Virus record (IMG/VR): IMGVR_UViG_2974649431_000001
Location: 92,282-156,281 of that record
DNA length: 64,000 nucleotides
Direction: 5' to 3' (one strand)
DNA from: a virus
Lineage: Duplodnaviria; Heunggongvirae; Uroviricota; Caudoviricetes
The stretch's first letter is position 1; each line of letters begins with the position of its first letter. Of the stretch, positions 14,440 through 61,110 are shown piece by piece. The translations under genes and the position numbers were made by a program. The notes beneath the pieces are model-generated. The model did no database searches and was not told the origin of the DNA. It saw nothing but the letters and a program-made list of their open reading frames with translations.

Positions 14440-14615
14440 CCAATGCAGAAGAAGCCGACGCGGCCGCCTTGCGCCACCTGAGCGACGCTATCGACGCGGC
14501 TGTCAAAAAATTCGGAGCCAAGGAACTCGCGGAGTCCCTGGCGTACAGCAACCAAGGTCATGGCATCAACTGCGATTGCGGTTCCTGCACTGGCGATGAC
14601 ATGATGGGGGATTGA
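14436..14615 (+). CDS. hypothetical small protein (59 aa)
   Basis: ORF below the 60-aa track cutoff that fills the gap between 14439 and 14615. ATGA overlap with the upstream stop; C-terminal CDCGSC. Confidence 0.3.
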   Translation: MTNAEEADAAALRHLSDAIDAAVKKFGAKELAESLAYSNQGHGINCDCGSCTGDDMMGD

Positions 14616-15067
14616 TGGAAGCAGCAATGAAAACGAAGAAGGTACGCGAGACGCGCGCGGAAGCCAATGCGCGGGCGATCCGCGAACAAAAAGAGCGAGA
14701 GGCTGCGTGGGTGGCACGGCGTCCGCTCGCCCTCGCCGACCTCATCCAGAAGGTGAAGGCTGCCGGGATGTTTGTCGAGGACTTGACAGTCCAGGTCGTG
14801 GAAGGCGTGATCATCCCGAGCTTCATCGTCCCGCATCAACTGGTCGGCTACGACAACGTCTTCGGTTGGGACACCGAAGAATGGGAGTTCGAGGAAGCCA
14901 TGCTGAGTGTCGACCACTACATCGCCCAGCAGAAGGCAGAGGCCGAGAGACGCGAGTTTGCGGCCGCGACCTGGAAAGGCCTCTCGCCGGAACAACGGGG
15001 TGCGCTCATCGAGTTCCCACCGTTCGAGATCAGCGAAGCCATCAGCTGGTCCTCGTCGGGCTGCTAA
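14615..15067 (+). CDS. hypothetical protein (150 aa)
   Basis: ORF 14612..15067 with ATG at 14615. Confidence 0.45.
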   Translation: MEAAMKTKKVRETRAEANARAIREQKEREAAWVARRPLALADLIQKVKAAGMFVEDLTVQVVEGVIIPSFIVPHQLVGYDNVFGWDTEEWEFEEAMLSVDHYIAQQKAEAERREFAAATWKGLSPEQRGALIEFPPFEISEAISWSSSGC

Positions 15068-44905: not shown

Positions 44906-45798
44906 ACGTCACGCCTCAATCCATGCGCGCATACCTGGAAGACGCGCGCAGCAAGGGACTGGTCTCCATGAAGGAGTGCCCCAACCATCCCGGCCTGTAC
45001 GTGCTGAAGTACAGCAAGAAAGTCTTCTACAAAGACCTGTGGGACGACCACCTGGAGGAAAGCCGCGGTACCATTGTGGACGCCGACTTCAACCCCGTGG
45101 TGCTGCCCTTCCGCAAGATCTACAACTTCGGCATCGAAAAGCGTGCCCCGCACTTCGACGACGATGAGCTCGTCATGGTGCATCCCAAGGTCAACGGCTT
45201 CATGGCGGCGATCACGCCCTACAAGGGTCAGCTCATCTACTCCACCACGGGCTCCACGACGTCCGACTTCGTCGACTACATCAAGGAGCTCGCGTCGGCA
45301 TACAAGCTGGAAGGTCACCTGGAGGAGGGCACGACGTATCTGTTCGAGGCCTGCCATCCCAAGGACCCGCACGTGATCCCGGAAATGCCCGGCCTCTACT
45401 ACCTGGGGCAGCGTCGCACAGCCTTCGGCACTTCGGTGGTCCACGACGACGTGCTCGCAAGCGCGCTGGGCTGCTTCTACTATTGGCCGACGCCCTGTCG
45501 GGTGAGTGAGCTGAAGAACTGGGCGAAGCGTGCTAACCACGAGGGCTTCGTCTTCTACAGCATGACAGACCCCACGAAGGCGGCTAAAATCAAGTCGCCC
45601 TACTACCTCGCCACGAAGCTCTTCGGCCGGGCCTCCAATCTGGACGTCCTGCTGAATGGCAAAGCCAAGCTCATCATGGACGAGGAGTTCTACCCGCTGA
45701 TCGACATGGTCCGGGAGAACAAGGAAGAATTTTCGTCCATGGACGAGCAAACCCGCATGGCATGGTGCCGTGCACACCTGGAGACCCTGATCAAGTGA
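44902..45798 (+). CDS. putative ATP-dependent RNA ligase
   Basis: KVNG (nucleotidyltransferase motif I KxDG/KxNG) in HPKVNGFMAAI. Size and context (adjacent polynucleotide kinase) as in T4 rnl/pnk. Confidence 0.5.
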   Translation: MNVTPQSMRAYLEDARSKGLVSMKECPNHPGLYVLKYSKKVFYKDLWDDHLEESRGTIVDADFNPVVLPFRKIYNFGIEKRAPHFDDDELVMVHPKVNGFMAAITPYKGQLIYSTTGSTTSDFVDYIKELASAYKLEGHLEEGTTYLFEACHPKDPHVIPEMPGLYYLGQRRTAFGTSVVHDDVLASALGCFYYWPTPCRVSELKNWAKRANHEGFVFYSMTDPTKAAKIKSPYYLATKLFGRASNLDVLLNGKAKLIMDEEFYPLIDMVRENKEEFSSMDEQTRMAWCRAHLETLIK

Positions 45799-46070
45799 CC
45801 CAAGCACAGAAACCCGTCCTCGTCATCTACGAATTCGTCCCGGAGGAAGCAACTCTGTGGAGTGTGCCCGCAGACTTCTTCACGGAAGCCGAGTGGAAAG
45901 TCTTCGCGGGCACCTACCAGAACACCACGACCATCACTGATGAGGAAATGGCCCTCCACGATCGGTTCAACGTGATCAACGAAGAAGGCAATGTGGCGAC
46001 GAAGCTGGAGGGCTCGATCTTCGATGCCAGCCAGTTCAGCAAGGTCGTCATTGCGGGCTTCATCCTCTGA
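45795..46070 (+). CDS. hypothetical protein (91 aa)
   Basis: GTG start overlapping the upstream TGA. Confidence 0.4.
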   Translation: MTQAQKPVLVIYEFVPEEATLWSVPADFFTEAEWKVFAGTYQNTTTITDEEMALHDRFNVINEEGNVATKLEGSIFDASQFSKVVIAGFIL

Positions 46071-46522
46071 TGGACGAGACGACTCTGACCATCTTCCGTG
46101 GGTTGCCCGGCAGCGGCAAGTCCACCCTGGCGAAGAAGATCTGTCCGCGCGTCTACGAAGCCGACCAGTTCTTCCTGGGGCTGGACGGCAGCTACCGTTT
46201 TGACCCCGAAATGGTGAGTCGCGCGCACCGGTGGTGTGCCAAGTCCGTCTATGCAGCACTTGCGCAGCGACAGACGGTGGGTGTAGCGAACACGAACACC
46301 ACTATCGCTGAGGTCATGCGCTACGCAGAGATGGGCGTGGAGGCGGGTGTGCGCATCGCGGTGTATGAGCTCACGGGCTCCTACGGCAGCGTCCACAATG
46401 TTCCTGATTTGGCAATGGAGAGGATGCGCGACCGCTGGGTGGACGGCACTACAATCGCCGACACGTTCAACGCGTACTATCCCCATTACACCAACTTCGT
46501 CTATGCGAGGGTTTCACGATGA
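46070..46522 (+). CDS. polynucleotide 5'-kinase (Pnk kinase domain only)
   Basis: LTIFRGLPGSGKSTLAKK vs T4 Pnk LTIGCPGSGKSTWAREF. About 150 aa, with no phosphatase domain. Confidence 0.65.
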   Translation: MDETTLTIFRGLPGSGKSTLAKKICPRVYEADQFFLGLDGSYRFDPEMVSRAHRWCAKSVYAALAQRQTVGVANTNTTIAEVMRYAEMGVEAGVRIAVYELTGSYGSVHNVPDLAMERMRDRWVDGTTIADTFNAYYPHYTNFVYARVSR

Positions 46523-46929
46523 AAGCTAAGTTTTACTCCCTGCCCGGTTTCCTGCAGCACGCGATTTACCACGCCATGGATCGCGAAGACTTCCCTATGG
46601 CCGCCTGGTCCGGCGCCGCCGAAAAAGTGATCGAGGCGAAACTGACCATCAAGGTCGAAGGGGACGCCGAGGAGTACGAAATCCCGGCACTGGACATCCT
46701 GGATCGGGTGCTCAACGAGCATGCAGATGCACGCATCAACAGGCGCGCACGTGAGATGGCCCAGGAAATGCTGGGCCTGGAAAAGATGAGCGCTCTGGCT
46801 GAGCGCATGCGTTGCAGCGCAGCGGCCATTGACAGTGCTGTCAGCGACCTGGAGAGGGTCAGCGACGAGGGCTTCAAGGACATCCATCCGGACGTCTATT
46901 GGGAATCGAGTAGCTCCCAGAACTGCTGA
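46519..46929 (+). CDS. hypothetical protein (136 aa)
   Basis: ORF. Confidence 0.5.
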   Translation: MKAKFYSLPGFLQHAIYHAMDREDFPMAAWSGAAEKVIEAKLTIKVEGDAEEYEIPALDILDRVLNEHADARINRRAREMAQEMLGLEKMSALAERMRCSAAAIDSAVSDLERVSDEGFKDIHPDVYWESSSSQNC

Positions 46930-47216
46930 TGGCTCAGCGCCCCGACGGATACCTGGTGGAGCACTGGCGAAACTCTGGTTTGGTGTTCTCAACAATGGTC
47001 CCTGGGAGTACCCCTCCCCCGGACTATGGACCCGACAAGAAGGTGATACCGCTGTACCGCGAAGCGCCACTGTTCAGGTCCATCTACAAGAATCCCGCTA
47101 CGCTGAAGGACTGCATTGCGGTGCGCTTCTTTGGCTGCAAATTTGAAGAGCTCGACGACGGCGAAGTAGCCGAAGTCGAAAAGACATTCGAGGCCCTCGT
47201 TGACTATGCACGATAG
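46929..47216 (+). CDS. hypothetical protein (95 aa)
   Basis: ORF. Confidence 0.45.
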   Translation: MAQRPDGYLVEHWRNSGLVFSTMVPGSTPPPDYGPDKKVIPLYREAPLFRSIYKNPATLKDCIAVRFFGCKFEELDDGEVAEVEKTFEALVDYAR

Positions 47217-47715
47217 ACTGAACGTAGATTTCATCCACCCGGAATCCGGATACAAGCGCTATGGCTGCCGGTGGGAAAAAGAAGAGCTGGACCGACTGAG
47301 GCAGCTCTTCACGAGTGGGATGGACCTCAGCCAGACCTGCAGGCAATTGGAACGGCCTCCTGGTGGCGTCATCCCCAAGCTCCTCCAACTCGGATTGATT
47401 GCCGAGCATGAACAATCCGGCGAATACATTCGCGTCAACCAACCCAAGGAAAACATCATGAACGAAACCACCATTCTCGCCAAAAGTTTCTCGCCGGATG
47501 CTTCGGTACCCACCATCGAAACCGTCGTGCGTATCAACGGTCGCGATGCCTCCCAGATGAGCAACGCAGACATTTTCAGGCTCATCGCCAAGCTGGAGAA
47601 GGAAGTGGACGTGCTCGACGTCATCCGGGTGCCCTCCAAAAAGATTCGCGCTGCCATCGAGAGCCTGGAAGAAGACATCAAGAAGCTGGCAGAGTACGTC
47701 GATGCGCGTGCCTGA
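47206..47715 (+). CDS. hypothetical protein (169 aa)
   Basis: ATG 47206 (the track used TTG 47200). Confidence 0.45.
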   Translation: MHDRLNVDFIHPESGYKRYGCRWEKEELDRLRQLFTSGMDLSQTCRQLERPPGGVIPKLLQLGLIAEHEQSGEYIRVNQPKENIMNETTILAKSFSPDASVPTIETVVRINGRDASQMSNADIFRLIAKLEKEVDVLDVIRVPSKKIRAAIESLEEDIKKLAEYVDARA

Positions 47716-48253
47716 TCCCTTCCTCGCCATGGAGGTGGCCTACGAATGGCACGCCTCCCAGACCAGGAAGTTCACCGGCGAGCCCTACGTCATTCACCTC
47801 GGTGAAGTCGCTGGGTTCGTTTCGAGTGCTACGACCAGCAAGGCCGCGATCTGCGCAGCCTGGCTCCATGACAGCATCGAAGACCAGGGCAAGACCTGGG
47901 ATGACATCGAGGCTCTCTTCGATGCCGAAGTCGCCGACTACGTGCTCGCCCTCACCGACCAGGAGGAGGGCAACAGTGCAGAGCGTCACACGGGTGCAGT
48001 CGAGCGGCTACGCAATGCACCCTACCTGGCTCAGGTCGTGAAGTGCGGCGACATCTACTCCAACACCAAGTCCATCGCCTCCCACGATCCCACGTGGGGC
48101 ATGTACTACGTGGAAAAGAAACTGGAAGTCCTGGACGCGATGATCCCGAGCCGTGCAAGGGCTTTCGCAAGGGAGGTCGCCTCGAGGGCTCTCTACCAAT
48201 GTGAACATTTCTTCGTCGAGCGCTGGCTGGCACAGCGTGCAGGAAAACTATGA
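47702..48253 (+). CDS. HD-domain phosphohydrolase
   Basis: H...HLGEV and AAWLHDSIED (HD motif). Confidence 0.55.
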   Translation: MRVPDPFLAMEVAYEWHASQTRKFTGEPYVIHLGEVAGFVSSATTSKAAICAAWLHDSIEDQGKTWDDIEALFDAEVADYVLALTDQEEGNSAERHTGAVERLRNAPYLAQVVKCGDIYSNTKSIASHDPTWGMYYVEKKLEVLDAMIPSRARAFAREVASRALYQCEHFFVERWLAQRAGKL

Positions 48254-48810
48254 GCGACATCTACTTCACTTCTGACCTTCACGCGTTCCACAAGAACATC
48301 ATGAAGTTCTGCCCGGCTACGCGCCACGGCGACAACGTCAGTGAGATGACGTCCATCCTCCTGGACCAAATCAACAAGACGGTGAAGCCAGGGGACACGC
48401 TCTACAACCTGGGCGATGTGAGCTTCGGAAGCGCCGCTCAGACCGAGGGTTTTCTGGGTGCCATTGCTTGCCGGAACCATCATCTGGTTTACGGGAACCA
48501 CGACCAGGTGATCCGCAAGAGCCCCAAGCTCCAGTCCCTGTTCGCGTCGGTGCAAACCGAACTGACGATCACGCACCGCAAGGTCGAGATCTACATGCAC
48601 CACTTCCCGCATCGCAGCTGGGACAAGAGCCACTATGGTGCCTTCCATCTGTATGGGCACCACCACGGGGCTCTGGAAGATGAGCCCTGGGGTCGCAGCA
48701 TGGACGTGGGCATCGACGCGCGCCCCTTCGGTGACATGAAGGTCTGGCACATCGATGAGGTCTTCCAGATTCTGGGTGCGCGCGAGCCCCTTGGGAAGTT
48801 TTCCGACTGA
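48250..48810 (+). CDS. calcineurin-like metallophosphoesterase
   Basis: Motifs DLHAFH, LGDVSFG, GNHD and HH...H. Confidence 0.65.
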   Translation: MSDIYFTSDLHAFHKNIMKFCPATRHGDNVSEMTSILLDQINKTVKPGDTLYNLGDVSFGSAAQTEGFLGAIACRNHHLVYGNHDQVIRKSPKLQSLFASVQTELTITHRKVEIYMHHFPHRSWDKSHYGAFHLYGHHHGALEDEPWGRSMDVGIDARPFGDMKVWHIDEVFQILGAREPLGKFSD

Positions 48811-49645: not shown

Positions 49646-49911
49646 GGAACCCCTTCCACGAGCTGAAGCTCGTTCAGCCCTTCTTCGATGACGTGGTTGC
49701 CCTGAAGAAGACTTTTGAAATCCGCCTGGACGATCGCCAGGACGGCTTTGAAGTCGGCGACATACTGCACCTGAAGGAGTGGACGCCCTCTGGGCATACC
49801 GGCCGTGAGGTCGTCATGCAGGTCACCTATGTCCTCCGAGGCCGCGACTATCCGGGCTATGGCCTCGACCCCAACTACGTCATCCTGTCCATCCAACCGA
49901 AGAAAGATTAA
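49642..49911 (+). CDS. ASCH-like (DUF3850) domain protein
   Basis: KKTFEIRLDDRQDGFEVGDILHLKEW...YVILSI matches the DUF3850/ASCH PUA-like pattern. Confidence 0.45.
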   Translation: MRNPFHELKLVQPFFDDVVALKKTFEIRLDDRQDGFEVGDILHLKEWTPSGHTGREVVMQVTYVLRGRDYPGYGLDPNYVILSIQPKKD

Positions 49912-50795
49912 TGACCACTGCATCCCAAGTCAAGCACGACGGCCGCTACCAAGAATACCTGGACCACGGATTCGTGGGCCTCATCAACCACATGGGCAGC
50001 GATGAGACCATCGAGTTCGCTACCCGCATGAGCTACGGCCAGGGCACGCGCCAAGTCAGCGACACGCGCGCACTGCTGCGCTACCTCGTGCGCCACTTCC
50101 ATACCAGCCCCATCGAAATGGGCGAAGTGGTCTTCCACATCAAGGTGCCCATCGCCATCATGCGTCAGCTGGTGCGTCACCGTACCGCCAAGATGAACGA
50201 GTACAGTGCGCGTTACAGTGAGCTGACGGACGAGGTGTATGTCCCTCCCGTCGATCGAATCCAGTTCCAGTCGACTACCAACAAGCAGGGTAGCGGCGAG
50301 GAAATGCCCATGGACCAGGTCGTCGAAATCCTGGAAGTCATGGAGTGTGCGTACGGCGACACGGACAGCGCCTATCGGCACCTTCTGGACATGGGGCTCA
50401 GCCGCGAGACTGCTCGCATGGTCATGCCCGTCGGCGGTTACACCGAAGTGGTCTGGAAGTGCGACCTGAAGAACTTCTTCCACATGGTCAAGCTCCGTAC
50501 CGATCCGCATGCGCAAGCTGAGATCCGCGACCTGGCGAACATCATGTACTCCATGGTTCGGCCGCTCTTCCCGCTGATCTGCCAGGCGTTCGAGGACTAC
50601 TGGCGAGACGGCGTCCACCTCAGTGTCTTCGAGTACGAAGCCCTGATGGACATCATCAGCAATGCTTTCGACAGCACCGCCGACCTGCAAGCCACCCTGG
50701 CTGCTGCGCTGCTGACAAGCGCAGAGCAGCGCAACCAGGCGCTGAGCAAGCGCGAGATCACCGAGTTCGTTACCCGTTTCACCCCCTCCATCTGA
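49911..50795 (+). CDS. thyX: flavin-dependent thymidylate synthase ThyX
   Basis: ThyX RHR-X7-S signature (LVRHRTAKMNEYSARYSE) and conserved upstream/downstream blocks. Confidence 0.85.
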   Translation: MTTASQVKHDGRYQEYLDHGFVGLINHMGSDETIEFATRMSYGQGTRQVSDTRALLRYLVRHFHTSPIEMGEVVFHIKVPIAIMRQLVRHRTAKMNEYSARYSELTDEVYVPPVDRIQFQSTTNKQGSGEEMPMDQVVEILEVMECAYGDTDSAYRHLLDMGLSRETARMVMPVGGYTEVVWKCDLKNFFHMVKLRTDPHAQAEIRDLANIMYSMVRPLFPLICQAFEDYWRDGVHLSVFEYEALMDIISNAFDSTADLQATLAAALLTSAEQRNQALSKREITEFVTRFTPSI

Positions 50796-50806
50796 AGGAC
50801 ATCACC

Positions 50807-51118
50807 ATGAGCCAAAACGCCGACTATGACAACGCCCTGAAAGCCGTGCGGGACTTCCCCACCGCTGCTCTCGAGAAGCTGCCGGAGGGCCCCACCGCGA
50901 TGAGCCAAAAGGAAGCGCAAACCTACCTGGATGCGATGTCCAAGGCTTACGAGAAGGTCGCCGGTCTCCTGGAAGACCGGATGGCGGAAGTCGCCCTGGC
51001 CTACAACCTCTACCTGTACCTGGGCGACTACGGCAGTGGTCGCACCCTGCTGCTGCAAGACGACGAGTGGACTGGCAAGTCCCGTGGTGAATGGATGAGC
51101 TCCAGCGAAGCCTGCTGA
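50807..51118 (+). CDS. hypothetical protein (103 aa)
   Basis: RBS after the thyX stop. Confidence 0.5.
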   Translation: MSQNADYDNALKAVRDFPTAALEKLPEGPTAMSQKEAQTYLDAMSKAYEKVAGLLEDRMAEVALAYNLYLYLGDYGSGRTLLLQDDEWTGKSRGEWMSSSEAC

Positions 51119-51141
51119 TGCTTTGCGGTAGCGCAAGTCGT

Positions 51142-51176
51142 TACCGCCTCTAGCCGCTTACAATAGCGGCTTTCCA
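51142..51176 (+). promoter_or_regulatory. hairpin containing a TTACAAT box upstream of the nucleotidyltransferase gene
   Basis: AGCCGC-ttacaat-GCGGCT stem-loop (51152-71) followed by TTCCAAT. Preceded by hairpin GCGGTA...TACCGC (51125-47). Confidence 0.35.
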
Positions 51177-51191
51177 ATGAGAGGATTTTTG

Positions 51192-52229
51192 ATGAGCAAC
51201 ATTCTTTTGGTCGGCAGCGCAGCACTGGAATTCCACAAGATCAAGACGGGACGCCCTCGTCAAGACCTCGACTTCATCTGCAGCGCTGCTGCATTCTCTG
51301 ATGCTGTGCGCCGCTACCGGATGGATCCTGAGACTCGGGGTGTCGTGAAGTCCATCATGCCGACCCTCGCTGGCCAGGCTGTGATCTGGCGGGATGGCAC
51401 CATCTGGGATGCGGAGTTCTTCGAGGGCGGCACCGATCCGGCGAAGGAGAGCGAATGGACTTTCCATCGTGGCGTTGTGTCGGCAACGGGGCATGTTGCA
51501 CACCTCCCGGGCATCGGTGAAGTCTCGGTGCCTGACATTGACTTCCTCTACATGCTCAAGATGAGCCACCGTTTCAAGAAGAACAGCAAGTTCTTCCGCA
51601 AGACGATGGACGACATCTTGCTGCTGCGGAGCTACGGCGCCGACATTGCTCCCGCAGACCAGAGTCTCTATGAGGCTCGGCAGAAGTGCACCTACACCTA
51701 CGGTCATCCCAAGCTGAACGTCGACAAGAAGTCGTTCTTCAAGGATGACGTCCCTTACCTGTACGATCACGACACCATCCACGAAGCTGTGGCCATCATG
51801 AGCAGACCTGCCTACACCCACTACATGGTGGACGGTGAGCAGGTCCTGACCTCCCGTACCAAGTTCGAAGCGCTTCCGCTGGAGGTTCGACTGCTGGGTG
51901 TGCTGGAAGAGTCCTACGTGCTGGCGCTGGAGCGCAGCATCATCCCGCACGCCAGCAGCCCTCGCAAGGCCTTCATGATGGCGCTGGAGAAGGTCTGCAC
52001 TTCCATCACCTCAGGGTGGTTCCGGGAGTTTGCGTGGGAGAACTACCACACGGTGGTTGCAATGTACGATCATTACGGCGGGGAAACGTTCGTGGAAAAG
52101 TTCAAGCTGGCTCTTGCGGCCGGCCGCATCGCCCCCTTCCGGGGAAGCATCTACGACAATGAACCAAAGCCCCAACAGAGCAATCACAGCAATCCTTCTG
52201 GCGAAGTCCACGCTCTCGTGGAAGCCTGA
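51192..52229 (+). CDS. Pol-beta-superfamily nucleotidyltransferase (N-terminal GS...DxD), unknown specificity
   Basis: LLVGSAALEFHKIKTGRPRQDLDF: the hG[GS]...D-h-D nucleotidyltransferase signature, ~10 residues from the N-terminus. 346 aa. Reminiscent of AbiEii/DUF1814 (GGTAL...RFSEDIDF) or MNT-type nucleotidyltransferases. Confidence 0.5.
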   Translation: MSNILLVGSAALEFHKIKTGRPRQDLDFICSAAAFSDAVRRYRMDPETRGVVKSIMPTLAGQAVIWRDGTIWDAEFFEGGTDPAKESEWTFHRGVVSATGHVAHLPGIGEVSVPDIDFLYMLKMSHRFKKNSKFFRKTMDDILLLRSYGADIAPADQSLYEARQKCTYTYGHPKLNVDKKSFFKDDVPYLYDHDTIHEAVAIMSRPAYTHYMVDGEQVLTSRTKFEALPLEVRLLGVLEESYVLALERSIIPHASSPRKAFMMALEKVCTSITSGWFREFAWENYHTVVAMYDHYGGETFVEKFKLALAAGRIAPFRGSIYDNEPKPQQSNHSNPSGEVHALVEA

Positions 52230-52659
52230 CGCTACAATCGCTGACTTCATCGGACAGCAGCAGTATTTGAAAGAATACCGCTCTGTCCATACCAGCCTCC
52301 CACGGCAGACCGGGAAGACGACAGCCATCCGATTGCTCGCTCGGCCCGGTGACATCGTCGTCTACCCAACCAGGTATCTCGTGCAGCGGAGCCGTACCCA
52401 AGGGCCCCACGGAAACGTCGATATCTGCAATCTTCAATCCCGAGAACGCATCACCGGCGTCCATGCTGTCGTCCTAAGCGAGCCGCTTGACTGCCTCCGA
52501 GGCCTTGCCTTCCCGGAAGACATGACCATCTGGTTCGACGAAGTGCCAGCGCGTGAAGCAAACCAATGGCTGAATGCCCACGCAGATTTTCTGTCGGCAA
52601 TTCGCGCTGTCCGCGAAGGATCTGTGTCCATCATCGGTCTCAGCACCGACTATAAGTAA
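52159..52659 (+). CDS. P-loop NTPase (Walker A) protein
   Basis: LPRQTGKTTAI Walker A. Start uncertain: ATG 52159 overlaps the upstream gene by 71 nt, and a TTG at ~52266 is an alternative. CGCTACAAT box at 52230. Confidence 0.4.
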   Translation: MNQSPNRAITAILLAKSTLSWKPDATIADFIGQQQYLKEYRSVHTSLPRQTGKTTAIRLLARPGDIVVYPTRYLVQRSRTQGPHGNVDICNLQSRERITGVHAVVLSEPLDCLRGLAFPEDMTIWFDEVPAREANQWLNAHADFLSAIRAVREGSVSIIGLSTDYK

Positions 52660-60322: not shown

Positions 60323-60658
60323 ATGACCCAAGAAAACAACCAAATCGCAGCACAGATCATCGCCTGGCGCGACGCCCACAACGTCATCCTGGTCCAGCCC
60401 TCAGAAGTGGTGCTGGCCCGCCGACTGGTCGCCAAGCACGAAGCCGAGACGCAGAAGAAGTTCGTGGAGTGGCTGCAGCAAGGCGCGGCCCTCGCAGAGC
60501 AAGTGGACGGCGACATCGAGGTGAACGGCGAAGTCATCGACGGCGACACCATCACCGGCGAGGCCGAAGATGCGGCCAGCGAGTACGCATACGACAACGG
60601 CCTGGAGTGGGACGGCGACCTCGCAGAGCCTGGCTTCTGGGAGCCCAGCACATGCTGA
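60323..60658 (+). CDS. hypothetical acidic protein (111 aa)
   Basis: ORF. Confidence 0.45.
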   Translation: MTQENNQIAAQIIAWRDAHNVILVQPSEVVLARRLVAKHEAETQKKFVEWLQQGAALAEQVDGDIEVNGEVIDGDTITGEAEDAASEYAYDNGLEWDGDLAEPGFWEPSTC

Positions 60659-61110
60659 ACGAAGACACGCTGGCCGCCCTCGGCTACACGAAGGCGTCGC
60701 TGGAGAACTGGCCAGGGGTTCAGACGCGCTGCAGCATTTCTCTCGTCGTGGTGCAGAGCTCCGGCGAGACCCGTGAGCACCAAGGCGTCCTCCTGGACGC
60801 CGGTGGCTACACCTACAACGACAAGGTCGAGCTGGACGCCAGCTGGCTGGAGGCGAGTCCCTACGGTGGCTACGAACGCCACAGCCTCTCGACGTTTGAA
60901 GGCGAAAGCGAGCTGTTCTTCAAGGTGCTGAGCTCTGCGTCGACGGTCGAAGAGATCCGCGACGAGACCTTCGTGAAGCTGGAAGGCCTGCAGCTGAACC
61001 ACGCCGACGAGGAAGCCGTGAAGCACCTGATCGAGGCGGCGCTGAAGGCCGCAGAGGAGCTGGGCTCGCGAAACGCCATCGACTGGGAATCTTCCAGCCT
61101 GTACTGCTGA
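60652..61110 (+). CDS. hypothetical protein (152 aa)
   Basis: ATG 60652. Confidence 0.45.
   Translation: MLNEDTLAALGYTKASLENWPGVQTRCSISLVVVQSSGETREHQGVLLDAGGYTYNDKVELDASWLEASPYGGYERHSLSTFEGESELFFKVLSSASTVEEIRDETFVKLEGLQLNHADEEAVKHLIEAALKAAEELGSRNAIDWESSSLYC

Follow-up and report, generated by a model that had tools for sequence, protein, structure and literature searches.

Small acidic proteins with a fixed C-terminal ending accompany a MenT-like nucleotidyltransferase across phages

Toxins of the MenT type are nucleotidyltransferases (NTases) whose catalytic set consists of a DxD motif together with a lysine and an aspartate in the helical lobe, namely D41/K137/D152 in MenT1, D80/K189/D211 in MenT3 and D69/K171/D186 in MenT4. 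In MNT-HEPN modules, studied by Songailiene and by Yao in 2020, a minimal NTase is said to oligo-AMPylate its HEPN partner. Here, we present an analysis of a phage NTase with a MenT-like fold whose gene lies in Acidovorax phage ACP17 (KY979132.2), within the final 64 kb. This whole stretch of 64,000 nucleotides (nt) is called the window, and a window position equals the record position minus 92281. The enzyme is the product of open reading frame (ORF) 1 at 51192-52229, which overlaps a downstream P-loop ATPase gene, ORF2. An initial annotation, made from the sequence alone, had regarded ORF1 and ORF2 as a pair; its observation is confirmed and its fold assignment is right, while the proposed pairing is wrong. 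Across phages, the NTase gene keeps a fixed orientation relative to linked genes whose small acidic products have a C-terminal tail in common (hereafter tail proteins), and the conserved partner of ORF1, overlooked in that annotation, is the upstream gene at 50807-51118.

The linkage was examined in 80 viral NTase loci, which represent 42 NTase lineages at 60% identity and include 8 kb per side where the contig allowed. All ORFs of these loci were called and clustered all-against-all, and an antisense shadow ORF within the NTase gene was set aside from the neighbour clustering. One neighbour family stood out, with 103 small ORFs from 57 loci and 23 lineages that share the NTase strand and precede the enzyme gene by a median distance of 0.6 kb. 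Of ~5,800 ORFs on the NTase strand, 212 ended in a strict tail motif, W-x-[STAPGN]-[ST]-x(1-3)-C-stop, compared with a single one of ~6,200 on the other strand. Within the 80 loci the strict motif gave 185 hits, including 169 upstream, 8 downstream and 8 overlapping ones, while all same-strand ORFs are divided 2439/2217 between upstream and downstream (binomial p 7.5e-38). The majority of the motif ORFs (150/185) lie at most 1.5 kb upstream of the NTase. With a relaxed motif, tail genes were found in 75 of the 80 loci and 39 of the 42 lineages, and in two of the five negative loci the contig extends less than 360 nt upstream. In the reciprocal test, a search begun with the YGMGG tail subfamily gave a same-strand NTase on 30 of 30 viral contigs, 29 of them with the NTase downstream within 1.5 kb.

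The same arrangement is seen in individual phages. In the RB69-like phage JS09, the tail genes RB69ORF139c, 137c and 136c, whose products end in WVSSSALC, WVASSHTC and WVSSSYSC, form a block with the NTase gene ORF134c between e.3 and e.2. These two genes are neighbours in T4, which has no NTase; a scan of 126 kb of its genome (1-76 kb and 119-169 kb), both strands included, gave no motif ORF. In each of the three ACP17-like contigs, the NTase is directly preceded by one or two tail genes.

The tail proteins have a median length of 93 amino acids and a median isoelectric point of 4.4, and share a layout of ~60-150 residues that opens with a helix, in many cases has a YG(M/S)GG turn, and continues through a variable, acidic spacer to the fixed ending. 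The ending takes the form W-x-S-S-S-x-x-C in 121 of 171 unique sequences and W-x-S-S-x-C in the other 50, and a locus may hold up to six divergent paralogues. The ACP17 protein encoded at 50807-51118 ends in EWMSSSEAC and matches the C-terminal 75 profile positions of phrog_899 (E 1.7e-5). When it was aligned with 23 family members, W96, S99 and the last residue, C103, were invariant and the glycines of YGxGG near-invariant, at a mean column identity of 23%. Neither Pfam nor the PDB contains a relative of the family, and a PDB profile search returned designed helical proteins only. Some tail proteins (loci L023-L102) carry an internal W-x-S-S-x-C followed by [YF]-G-E in addition to the terminal copy, for example ...DWLSSSCFGEGDDGFGVNADGSIWQSSSC, and because the unit also occurs internally, a free C-terminus is not strictly needed by the motif. 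An apparent fusion of tail protein and NTase in L115 and L116 proved to be an artefact, as the longest ORF lay in a different frame.

The enzyme itself had been described as a 346-residue NTase; the reading frame is real, with the stop codon counted in that figure and an actual length of 345 residues. The reported GS...DxD signature is no product of chance, since conservation of G8-S9 and D25-x-D27 is 90% or higher among 43 homologues (42-57% identity), the set from which the ORF1 alignment was made. ORF1 matches Pfam DUF7275 over residues 119-299 (242.6 bits, cut-off 27, E 4e-72), DUF7277 over residues 5-88 (39.9 bits, cut-off 27, E 7e-10) and phrog_2141 over residues 4-317 (E 5.6e-113). Pfam gave nothing else at E <= 1, including PF08843/DUF1814, and no match was found in NCBIfam, PADLOC or, even with a profile, among PDB sequences. 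In total, 1862 protein clusters are homologous to ORF1, and the family is present in at least 735 phage records, its carriers including RB69-type phages, Phapecoctavirus and phages of Acinetobacter, Aeromonas, Stenotrophomonas, Pseudomonas and actinobacteria.

An AlphaFold model of ORF1 built from the alignment was of high confidence (predicted local distance difference test 88.3, predicted template modelling score 0.83), except for residues 320-345, which scored below 50. Foldseek ranked MenT1 first among PDB structures (E 5e-4), followed by ANT(2'')-Ia, TM1012 and TglT/MenT3, and the resemblance to MenT/AbiEii toxins extends over both lobes. The GS turn, the DxD strand and a third carboxylate at position 72, which is Asp or Glu in all displayed sequences (half of the alignment), are those of the Pol-beta superfamily, and the fold matches as well. 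Thus, the suggestion that ORF1 is of the MNT/AbiEii toxin type and not a polymerase is upheld, together with the conserved carboxylates, and ORF1 is a Pol-beta-superfamily NTase of the MenT/AbiEii-ANT(2'') kind with an intact-looking active site. K123 and D141 are invariant across the alignment, and the spacing of 98 residues from D25 to K123 and 18 from K123 to D141 is close to that in MenT1 (96/15), MenT3 (109/22) and MenT4 (102/15). Further invariant residues of the C-terminal lobe are S125, H126, R163, H193, D194, H197, E239, E240, E247, R248, K267 and C269-G275, and a near-invariant set specific to the phage DUF7275 lobe comprises S125, H126, Y191-D-H-D-x-x-H197, E239-E240, E247-R248 and K267-V-C-T-S-I-T-S-G275...R278. 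The family is mildly acidic (median isoelectric point 6.1, median net charge -6), and its only basic segment is formed by residues 116-180 (median net charge +5).

Several other assignments of ORF1 were considered and rejected. A HEPN-like reading fails on R248-x4-H253, which is unconserved, with H, N, Y or F at the His position. The earlier CD-NTase-like reading is likewise discarded: matches to CdnG and CdnB had E >= 0.12 and probability <= 0.21, PADLOC gave no hits, and neither the fold nor an accompanying effector or Cap gene characterises ORF1 as a CD-NTase or cGAS-like signalling enzyme. The C-terminal lobe does not have the HD fold and H...HD...D metal site of HD phosphohydrolases, and ORF1 is not a sequence member of DUF1814, as PF08843 was not matched. 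A cognate MenA/AbiEi antitoxin of a cellular toxin-antitoxin or abortive-infection locus is not in evidence either, with no PADLOC hit and an upstream gene that belongs to the phrog_899 tail family.

When 185,579 species genomes were scanned by pattern, only five NTase loci turned up, all on metagenome-assembled-genome contigs of 2-167 kb, and four of these five have tail-family genes just 5' of the NTase as in phages. The scan used exact peptide patterns, which divergent cellular homologues could escape; within this limit the NTase family appears to be confined to phages and phage-like contigs. Minimal members come from actinophages, Gordonia phage Yvonnetastic gp16 (260 residues, L016:2327-3109) and Streptomyces phage BillNye gp81 (248 residues, L017:2390-3136), which have lost most of the beta-sheet and retain GS, DxD, K-x-S-H, H-D-x-x-H and EE...ER. 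The Yvonnetastic NTase lies 1.5 kb from a tRNA cluster.

Other neighbourhood features were also evaluated as functional links. A tRNA cluster is located 1.5-4 kb downstream of the NTase in three of eight neighbourhoods inspected, which is indistinguishable from the general clustering of early-region genes. The order thyX-NTase-nrdA is found in the ACP17 group alone, and elsewhere the NTase sits among small early ORFs, so a general link to nucleotide metabolism was dismissed. A role in arabinosyl-5-hydroxycytosine DNA modification was rejected as well: RB69 and DLP3 have both the modification and the NTase, yet the NTase is not in the published list of pathway genes, and the link is further weakened by phages that bear the NTase and are not reported to make the modification. 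Among the metagenomic phage contigs, ARAGORN placed tmRNA-like genes within phage tRNA clusters at L004:6242-6614 and L012:8197-8554.

For the downstream ORF, the initial annotation had pointed out the Walker A motif (PRQTGKTT), which is indeed present and belongs to a genuine P-loop gene, the key residues being invariant in homologues. The Walker B motif had gone unmentioned. The ORF2 frame is open over 52030-52659, and the GenBank coding sequence (CDS) covers only the last 46 codons (52522-52659), a truncated gene call that severs Walker B from Walker A. The frame score of ORF2 was +0.05 bits per codon against -0.54 and -0.71, and its GC content at third codon positions is 0.65, compared with 0.75 in ORF1 and 0.81-0.82 in nrdA and thyX, reflecting a weaker codon bias than that of its neighbours. 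A start at ATG 52159, overlapping ORF1 by exactly 71 nt (52159-52229), had been one of two options, and it is the one retained because no ATG or GTG occurs in frame between 52159 and the TTG and because homologues align upstream of codon 37. The alternative TTG start, placed at about 52266 and actually at 52267 (codon 37), is therefore not supported, homologues aligning from ORF2 residues 6-30 and their N-terminal N-x-A-I helix aligning with residues 6-12. The CGCTACAAT box before this TTG could not be recognised as a promoter, with no sigma-70-like site found on the + strand. The related 10-mer CGCTWACAAT, which fits the copy 5' of ORF1 at 51155 but not the box at 52230, occurs 5 times in the window where 3.1 matches are expected, and so shows no enrichment.

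A word-indexed protein search with ORF2 found no homologue, and an exhaustive HMMER scan recovered homologues of 132-149 residues (best E 2.6e-17, 43% identity) in which R49, G52 and K53 of Walker A and D127 and E128 of Walker B are invariant. ORF2 matches phrog_2586 (E 3.1e-5), as do six of seven family members (best E 4e-14), and hhalign related the ORF2 family to the T4 Vs.8 family (phrog_1488) with a probability of 97.6% and E 3.6e-12. On these profile comparisons ORF2 is a remote homologue of T4 Vs.8 with a predicted single-domain ATPase fold. The two share a colinear E-x-R-T...G/P-R-Q-T-G-K-T/S Walker A, an hhhh-D-E Walker B and a helical region of ~45 residues ahead of the P-loop, while ORF2 is highly divergent, with 23-42% identity even to its nearest relatives. 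The Vs.8-like family (phrog_1488/phrog_2586) is found in more than 1000 T4-like phage records, T4 included. Judged by the identities between ACP17 and L010, its closest relative (80% for NrdA, 57% for the NTase and 40% for ORF2), ORF2 evolves faster than the neighbouring genes. T4 vs.8 (L103:2381-3031) is annotated with 216 residues and its other T4-like homologues (176 residues) align from about codon 41, so the T4 gene may in fact start further downstream than annotated. ORF2 is not a thymidine or nucleotide kinase, as it has a Walker B of the 'DE' type, a RecA-like fold, no lasso domain and no match to the Pfam family TK, and it ends ~40 residues past Walker B. One homologue does match TK, Aeromonas phage GomatiRiver_11 CDS0187 (L006:3390-3857; 26.3 bits, gathering score 20.6), over the P-loop half only (positions 2-88 of 176), and this partial match could be a source of mis-annotation. 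A superfamily 1 or 2 helicase or a terminase ATPase was also rejected, since two RecA-like domains, a nuclease and an arginine-finger partner were not found.

ORF2 is a separate gene, independent of ORF1. Its homologues adjoin nrdA on the 5' side in a T4-like contig and thyX on the 3' side in a T5-like one; in T4-like Aeromonas phages they lie between nrdB-nrdA and a tRNA cluster, and in Vibrio phi3 next to tRNA genes. Such homologues beside nrdA, nrdB, thyX or tRNA genes occur without an NTase. The suggested check of co-occurrence in other phages showed the NTase mostly without an adjacent P-loop gene, and where both are present their order and spacing vary. In L010 the P-loop gene has a GTG start and follows the NTase after a 42-nt spacer, in L009 it lies downstream behind an extra 183-residue gene, and in L008 it lies upstream between thyX and the tail gene; in ACP17, L010 and L009 the ORF2 gene is directly 5' of nrdA. 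A gene for a non-P-loop protein of 183-185 residues stands between NTase and nrdA in L008 (6950-7507) and L009 (3108-3659), and is absent in ACP17 and L010. No P-loop gene adjoins the NTase in RB69-like JS09, in Moby or in three large metagenomic phage contigs. Of the 80 loci, 22 have a same-strand Vs.8-like gene that follows the NTase at a distance of 2.8-7.6 kb; among these 22, the isolate-sized contigs look T4-like and L053 is a 306-kb contig. In a 173,591-bp contig the two genes are ~27 kb apart, and T4 has vs.8 and no NTase. The NTase-Vs.8 linkage is loose and lineage-bound because order and spacing vary and T4 has vs.8 without the NTase. The overlap in ACP17 results from a disordered 25-residue extension of ORF1 specific to this phage. 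The 42 aligned homologues stop at about residue 321 (...PF-x-G-S-x-Y) and none has the extension, the L010 NTase ends in ...GSKYKE-stop, and the ORF2 ATG coincides with ORF1 codon 323. The simplest reading of these sequences is that ACP17 ORF1 has probably lost its ancestral stop codon and now runs on into ORF2 for 71 nt. The overlap is seen in ACP17 only and gives no evidence of coupling.

The tail and the C-terminal lobe of the NTase are each near-invariant, in contrast to the divergent remainder of the small proteins, and this suggests how the module might work. Our best guess, offered tentatively, is that the NTase nucleotidylates the C-terminal tails of the upstream small acidic proteins. 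ORF1 would be a Mg-dependent NTase in which the Pol-beta core (G8-S9, D25-x-D27 and the acidic position 72) stands opposite a helical lobe bearing K123 and D141. This lobe, enlarged by a phage-specific, near-invariant surface rich in His, Asp, Glu and Arg, would dock the invariant tail. A nucleoside monophosphate could then be moved from a nucleoside triphosphate to a tail serine hydroxyl, that is, protein nucleotidylylation, and in this way a single enzyme might switch a range of diversified effector proteins made early by the phage. A number of points weigh against this proposal. Enzymes of the MenT type modify tRNA 3' ends and not proteins, and the co-occurrence is equally compatible with a regulatory or inhibitory role of the small proteins. 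The equivalence of K123 and D141 to the MenT Lys and Asp is drawn from spacing and aligned length and involves no residue-level superposition, and D141 is replaced by His in RB69-like NTases. No tail-motif gene is visible beside the minimal actinophage NTases, the reciprocal test was limited to one tail subfamily (YGMGG), and the tail family in ACP17 is dispersed as well as adjacent, since three of its genes (60323-60658, 60652-61110 and 14612-15067) lie 8-36 kb from the NTase. Simple serine nucleotidylylation also does not account for the strictly terminal Cys and the tandem units, which may leave room for more unusual chemistry. One such scheme, very improbable in our view, is a phage-encoded pathway of protein maturation with a new type of chemistry, in which the Ser would be activated by O-nucleotidylation, the nucleotide eliminated by the invariant DUF7275 lobe, rich in His, Asp and Glu, and the terminal or internal Cys added to the resulting dehydroalanine, giving a lanthionine-like thioether ring at the C-terminus of the small acidic proteins. 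It would explain the Cys fixed 1-4 residues after the invariant tail Ser, the internal motif copies and a second conserved putative metal site.

The enzyme could alternatively act as MenT enzymes do, on RNA 3' ends such as host tRNA acceptor stems or defence RNA, with the tail proteins inhibiting, timing or targeting it; we rate this as unlikely, although the nearest folds are the tRNA-modifying MenT1, MenT3 and MenT4 and the gene order is that of MenA1-MenT1, in which the antitoxin blocks the active site (PMC10435456). By analogy with the 68-residue MenA1 encoded 5' of MenT1, and with the same low expectation, the C-terminal tail would plug the active site, where its terminal carboxylate, together with the thiol and the serines, might act as a chelator of the catalytic metals. 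RNA could be bound by the basic segment 116-180, and the family belongs to large phages, with tRNA clusters downstream in the three neighbourhoods already described. Set against this are the divergent paralogues, up to six at a locus, unusual for an antitoxin, an NTase that is acidic overall where MenT surfaces are electropositive, and searches that matched neither DUF1814 nor a kinase- or AbiEi-type antitoxin nor any PADLOC entry; blocking tRNA charging would moreover profit a phage little unless it were selective. A small-molecule acceptor, as in ANT(2'') and LnuA, with tail proteins that are co-inherited and not the substrate, is decidedly improbable. Candidates would be a cationic antibiotic-type chemical defence, a polyamine, a signalling nucleotide or a metabolite of the nucleotide pool. 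An acidic C-terminal lobe (median net charge -6) with many invariant Asp, Glu and His residues suits a cationic or metal-bound ligand, and the actinophage NTases manage without adjacent tail genes, but the near-obligate, oriented tail-gene linkage is then left unexplained, and the position between thyX and nrdA in ACP17 and its relatives, which might also be cited, is limited to that group. We attach hardly any probability to the two-gene anti-defence or nucleotide-signalling system of NTase and P-loop NTPase put forward in the initial annotation. The two genes are adjacent or less than 1 kb apart in ACP17 and all three ACP17-like contigs, and there are the 22 loci with a same-strand Vs.8-like gene downstream, but not even the ACP17 group is uniform in gene order and spacing, Moby and the three metagenomic contigs have no P-loop neighbour, Vs.8 of T4 and other ORF2 homologues occur without the NTase, the distance reaches ~27 kb in one contig, the overlap is due to the ACP17-only extension, and the CD-NTase similarity is insignificant. 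Scarcely credible, too, is a catalytically dead NTase-fold scaffold that merely binds the tail proteins: the His in place of D141 in RB69-like members and the strongest conservation lying outside the Pol-beta core would fit, whereas the retention of GS, DxD and K123 in over 40 lineages, and also in the reduced NTases of actinophages, is typical of active enzymes.

The features of the window are listed in Table 1. The NTase region is flanked by thyX (49911-50795) and nrdA-nrdB (from 52691). The ORF1 start at ATG 51192 has the Shine-Dalgarno sequence AGAGGA (51180-51185) six nt 5' of it and agrees with the N-termini of homologues, and another in-frame ATG, at 51177, lies 5' of this sequence. The spacer between tail gene and NTase gene (folded as 51116-51200) has a predicted RNA fold of -30.9 kcal/mol (z -3.47), a stability that 0 of 200 shuffles reached; in this fold CCUCU is paired with the AGAGG of the ORF1 Shine-Dalgarno sequence; on this predicted fold the hairpins could exert translational control of the NTase.

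Table 1. Positions of the NTase, tail-protein and P-loop ATPase features in the window.
Feature	Position	Strand	Details
ORF1 (NTase)	51192-52229	+	346 codons including stop, 345 residues; GenBank ASD50515.1, hypothetical protein
ORF1 N-terminal lobe	51192-51536	+	Residues 1-115; Pfam DUF7277; Pol-beta NTase core
ORF1 core residues G8-S9	51213-51218	+	
ORF1 core residues D25-x-D27	51264-51272	+	
ORF1 core residue, acidic position 72	51405-51407	+	
ORF1 helical lobe	51537-52151	+	Residues 116-320; Pfam DUF7275; bears K123 and D141
ORF1 C-terminal extension and stop codon	52152-52229	+	25 residues (YDNEPKPQQSNHSNPSGEVHALVEA); ACP17-specific
ORF2	52159-52659	+	166 residues; single-domain RecA-like (ASCE-class) P-loop ATPase
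ORF2 Walker A	52300-52323	+	P48-RQTGKTT-55
ORF2 Walker B	52528-52542	+	I124-WFDE-128
Tail-family gene	50807-51118	+	103-residue acidic protein ending ...DYGSGRTLLLQDDEWTGKSRGEWMSSSEAC-stop; annotated CDS ASD50514.1
Spacer	51119-51191	+	73 nt; two hairpins (51125-51147, 51152-51171); inverted-repeat search
Tandem tail-family gene, first	60323-60658	+	Ends ...FWEPSTC; 8 kb 3' of the NTase gene; motif scan; annotated CDS
Tandem tail-family gene, second	60652-61110	+	Ends ...DWESSSLYC; motif scan; annotated CDS
Tail-motif gene	14615-15067	+	Ends ...ISWSSSGC; 150 residues, GenBank ASD50441.1; ORF scan 14612-15067, 151 residues

Further upstream, GenBank annotates an Rnl1-type RNA ligase (44923-45798), an HD 'ppGpp 3'-pyrophosphohydrolase'-like protein (47702-48253) and a metallophosphoesterase (48250-48810), and the genes in 44923-48810 are possibly an RNA-repair or alarmone-hydrolase cluster. 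A tRNA-Met(CAT) gene at 63934-64004 crosses the end of the window and is the sole tRNA detected within the 64 kb.

The NTase family is catalogued solely as two Pfam domains of unknown function and a PHROG of unknown function. Literature searches with the names of the Pfam domains, the PHROG and the RB69 ORFs returned nothing on the NTase family, the tail proteins or their pairing; a search on vs.7 likewise gave nothing relevant, and did not extend to vs.8, the pertinent T4 gene. Tail proteins and MenT-like NTase are thus a widespread two-component module of phages for which we found no description. If one MenT-like enzyme modifies or controls diversifying small acidic proteins via a common C-terminal handle, this would represent a new layer of phage early-gene biology, with host takeover or counter-defence as the most plausible role of the module and a toxin-type fold put to new use. 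RB69, a model phage amenable to genetics, would allow this to be addressed directly. For annotation, the truncation of ORF2 in GenBank can be corrected and ORF2 tied to the uncharacterised T4 gene vs.8.

Compared with described systems, ORF1 is closest to the MenT/AbiEii toxins MenT1 (Rv0078A), MenT3/TglT (Rv1045) and MenT4 (Rv2826c), with which it shares the DxD of the N-terminal lobe and, putatively, the helical-lobe Lys and Asp, judged by their matching spacing, and the locus resembles MenA1-MenT1 in having a small-protein gene immediately 5'. It differs from MenT in ~140 extra near-invariant residues of the C-terminal lobe, in its overall acidity, in giving no PF08843 hit and in its distribution, since these searches recovered it from phages and phage-like contigs alone and gave no cellular homologue that is bona fide. 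Its partners, in turn, are unlike the MenA and AbiEi antitoxins, being multi-copy acidic proteins that end in W-x-S-S-S-x-x-C. ANT(2'')-Ia and LnuA have no sequence similarity to ORF1, which is set apart from them also by its phage early-gene context with a protein partner family. Clusters for ribosomally synthesised and post-translationally modified peptides are comparable in that one enzyme is accompanied by one to six upstream small ORFs with a fixed motif and a variable remainder, while the NTase module has folded-looking partners of 60-150 residues in place of short peptides and includes no enzyme family known from such clusters. The MNT-HEPN modules differ in gene order and fold subclass, in a Tyr acceptor and in the Rx4-6H motif, which the tail proteins do not have, and they provide the precedent for a small Pol-beta NTase covalently nucleotidylating a protein encoded next to it, as we propose for ORF1.

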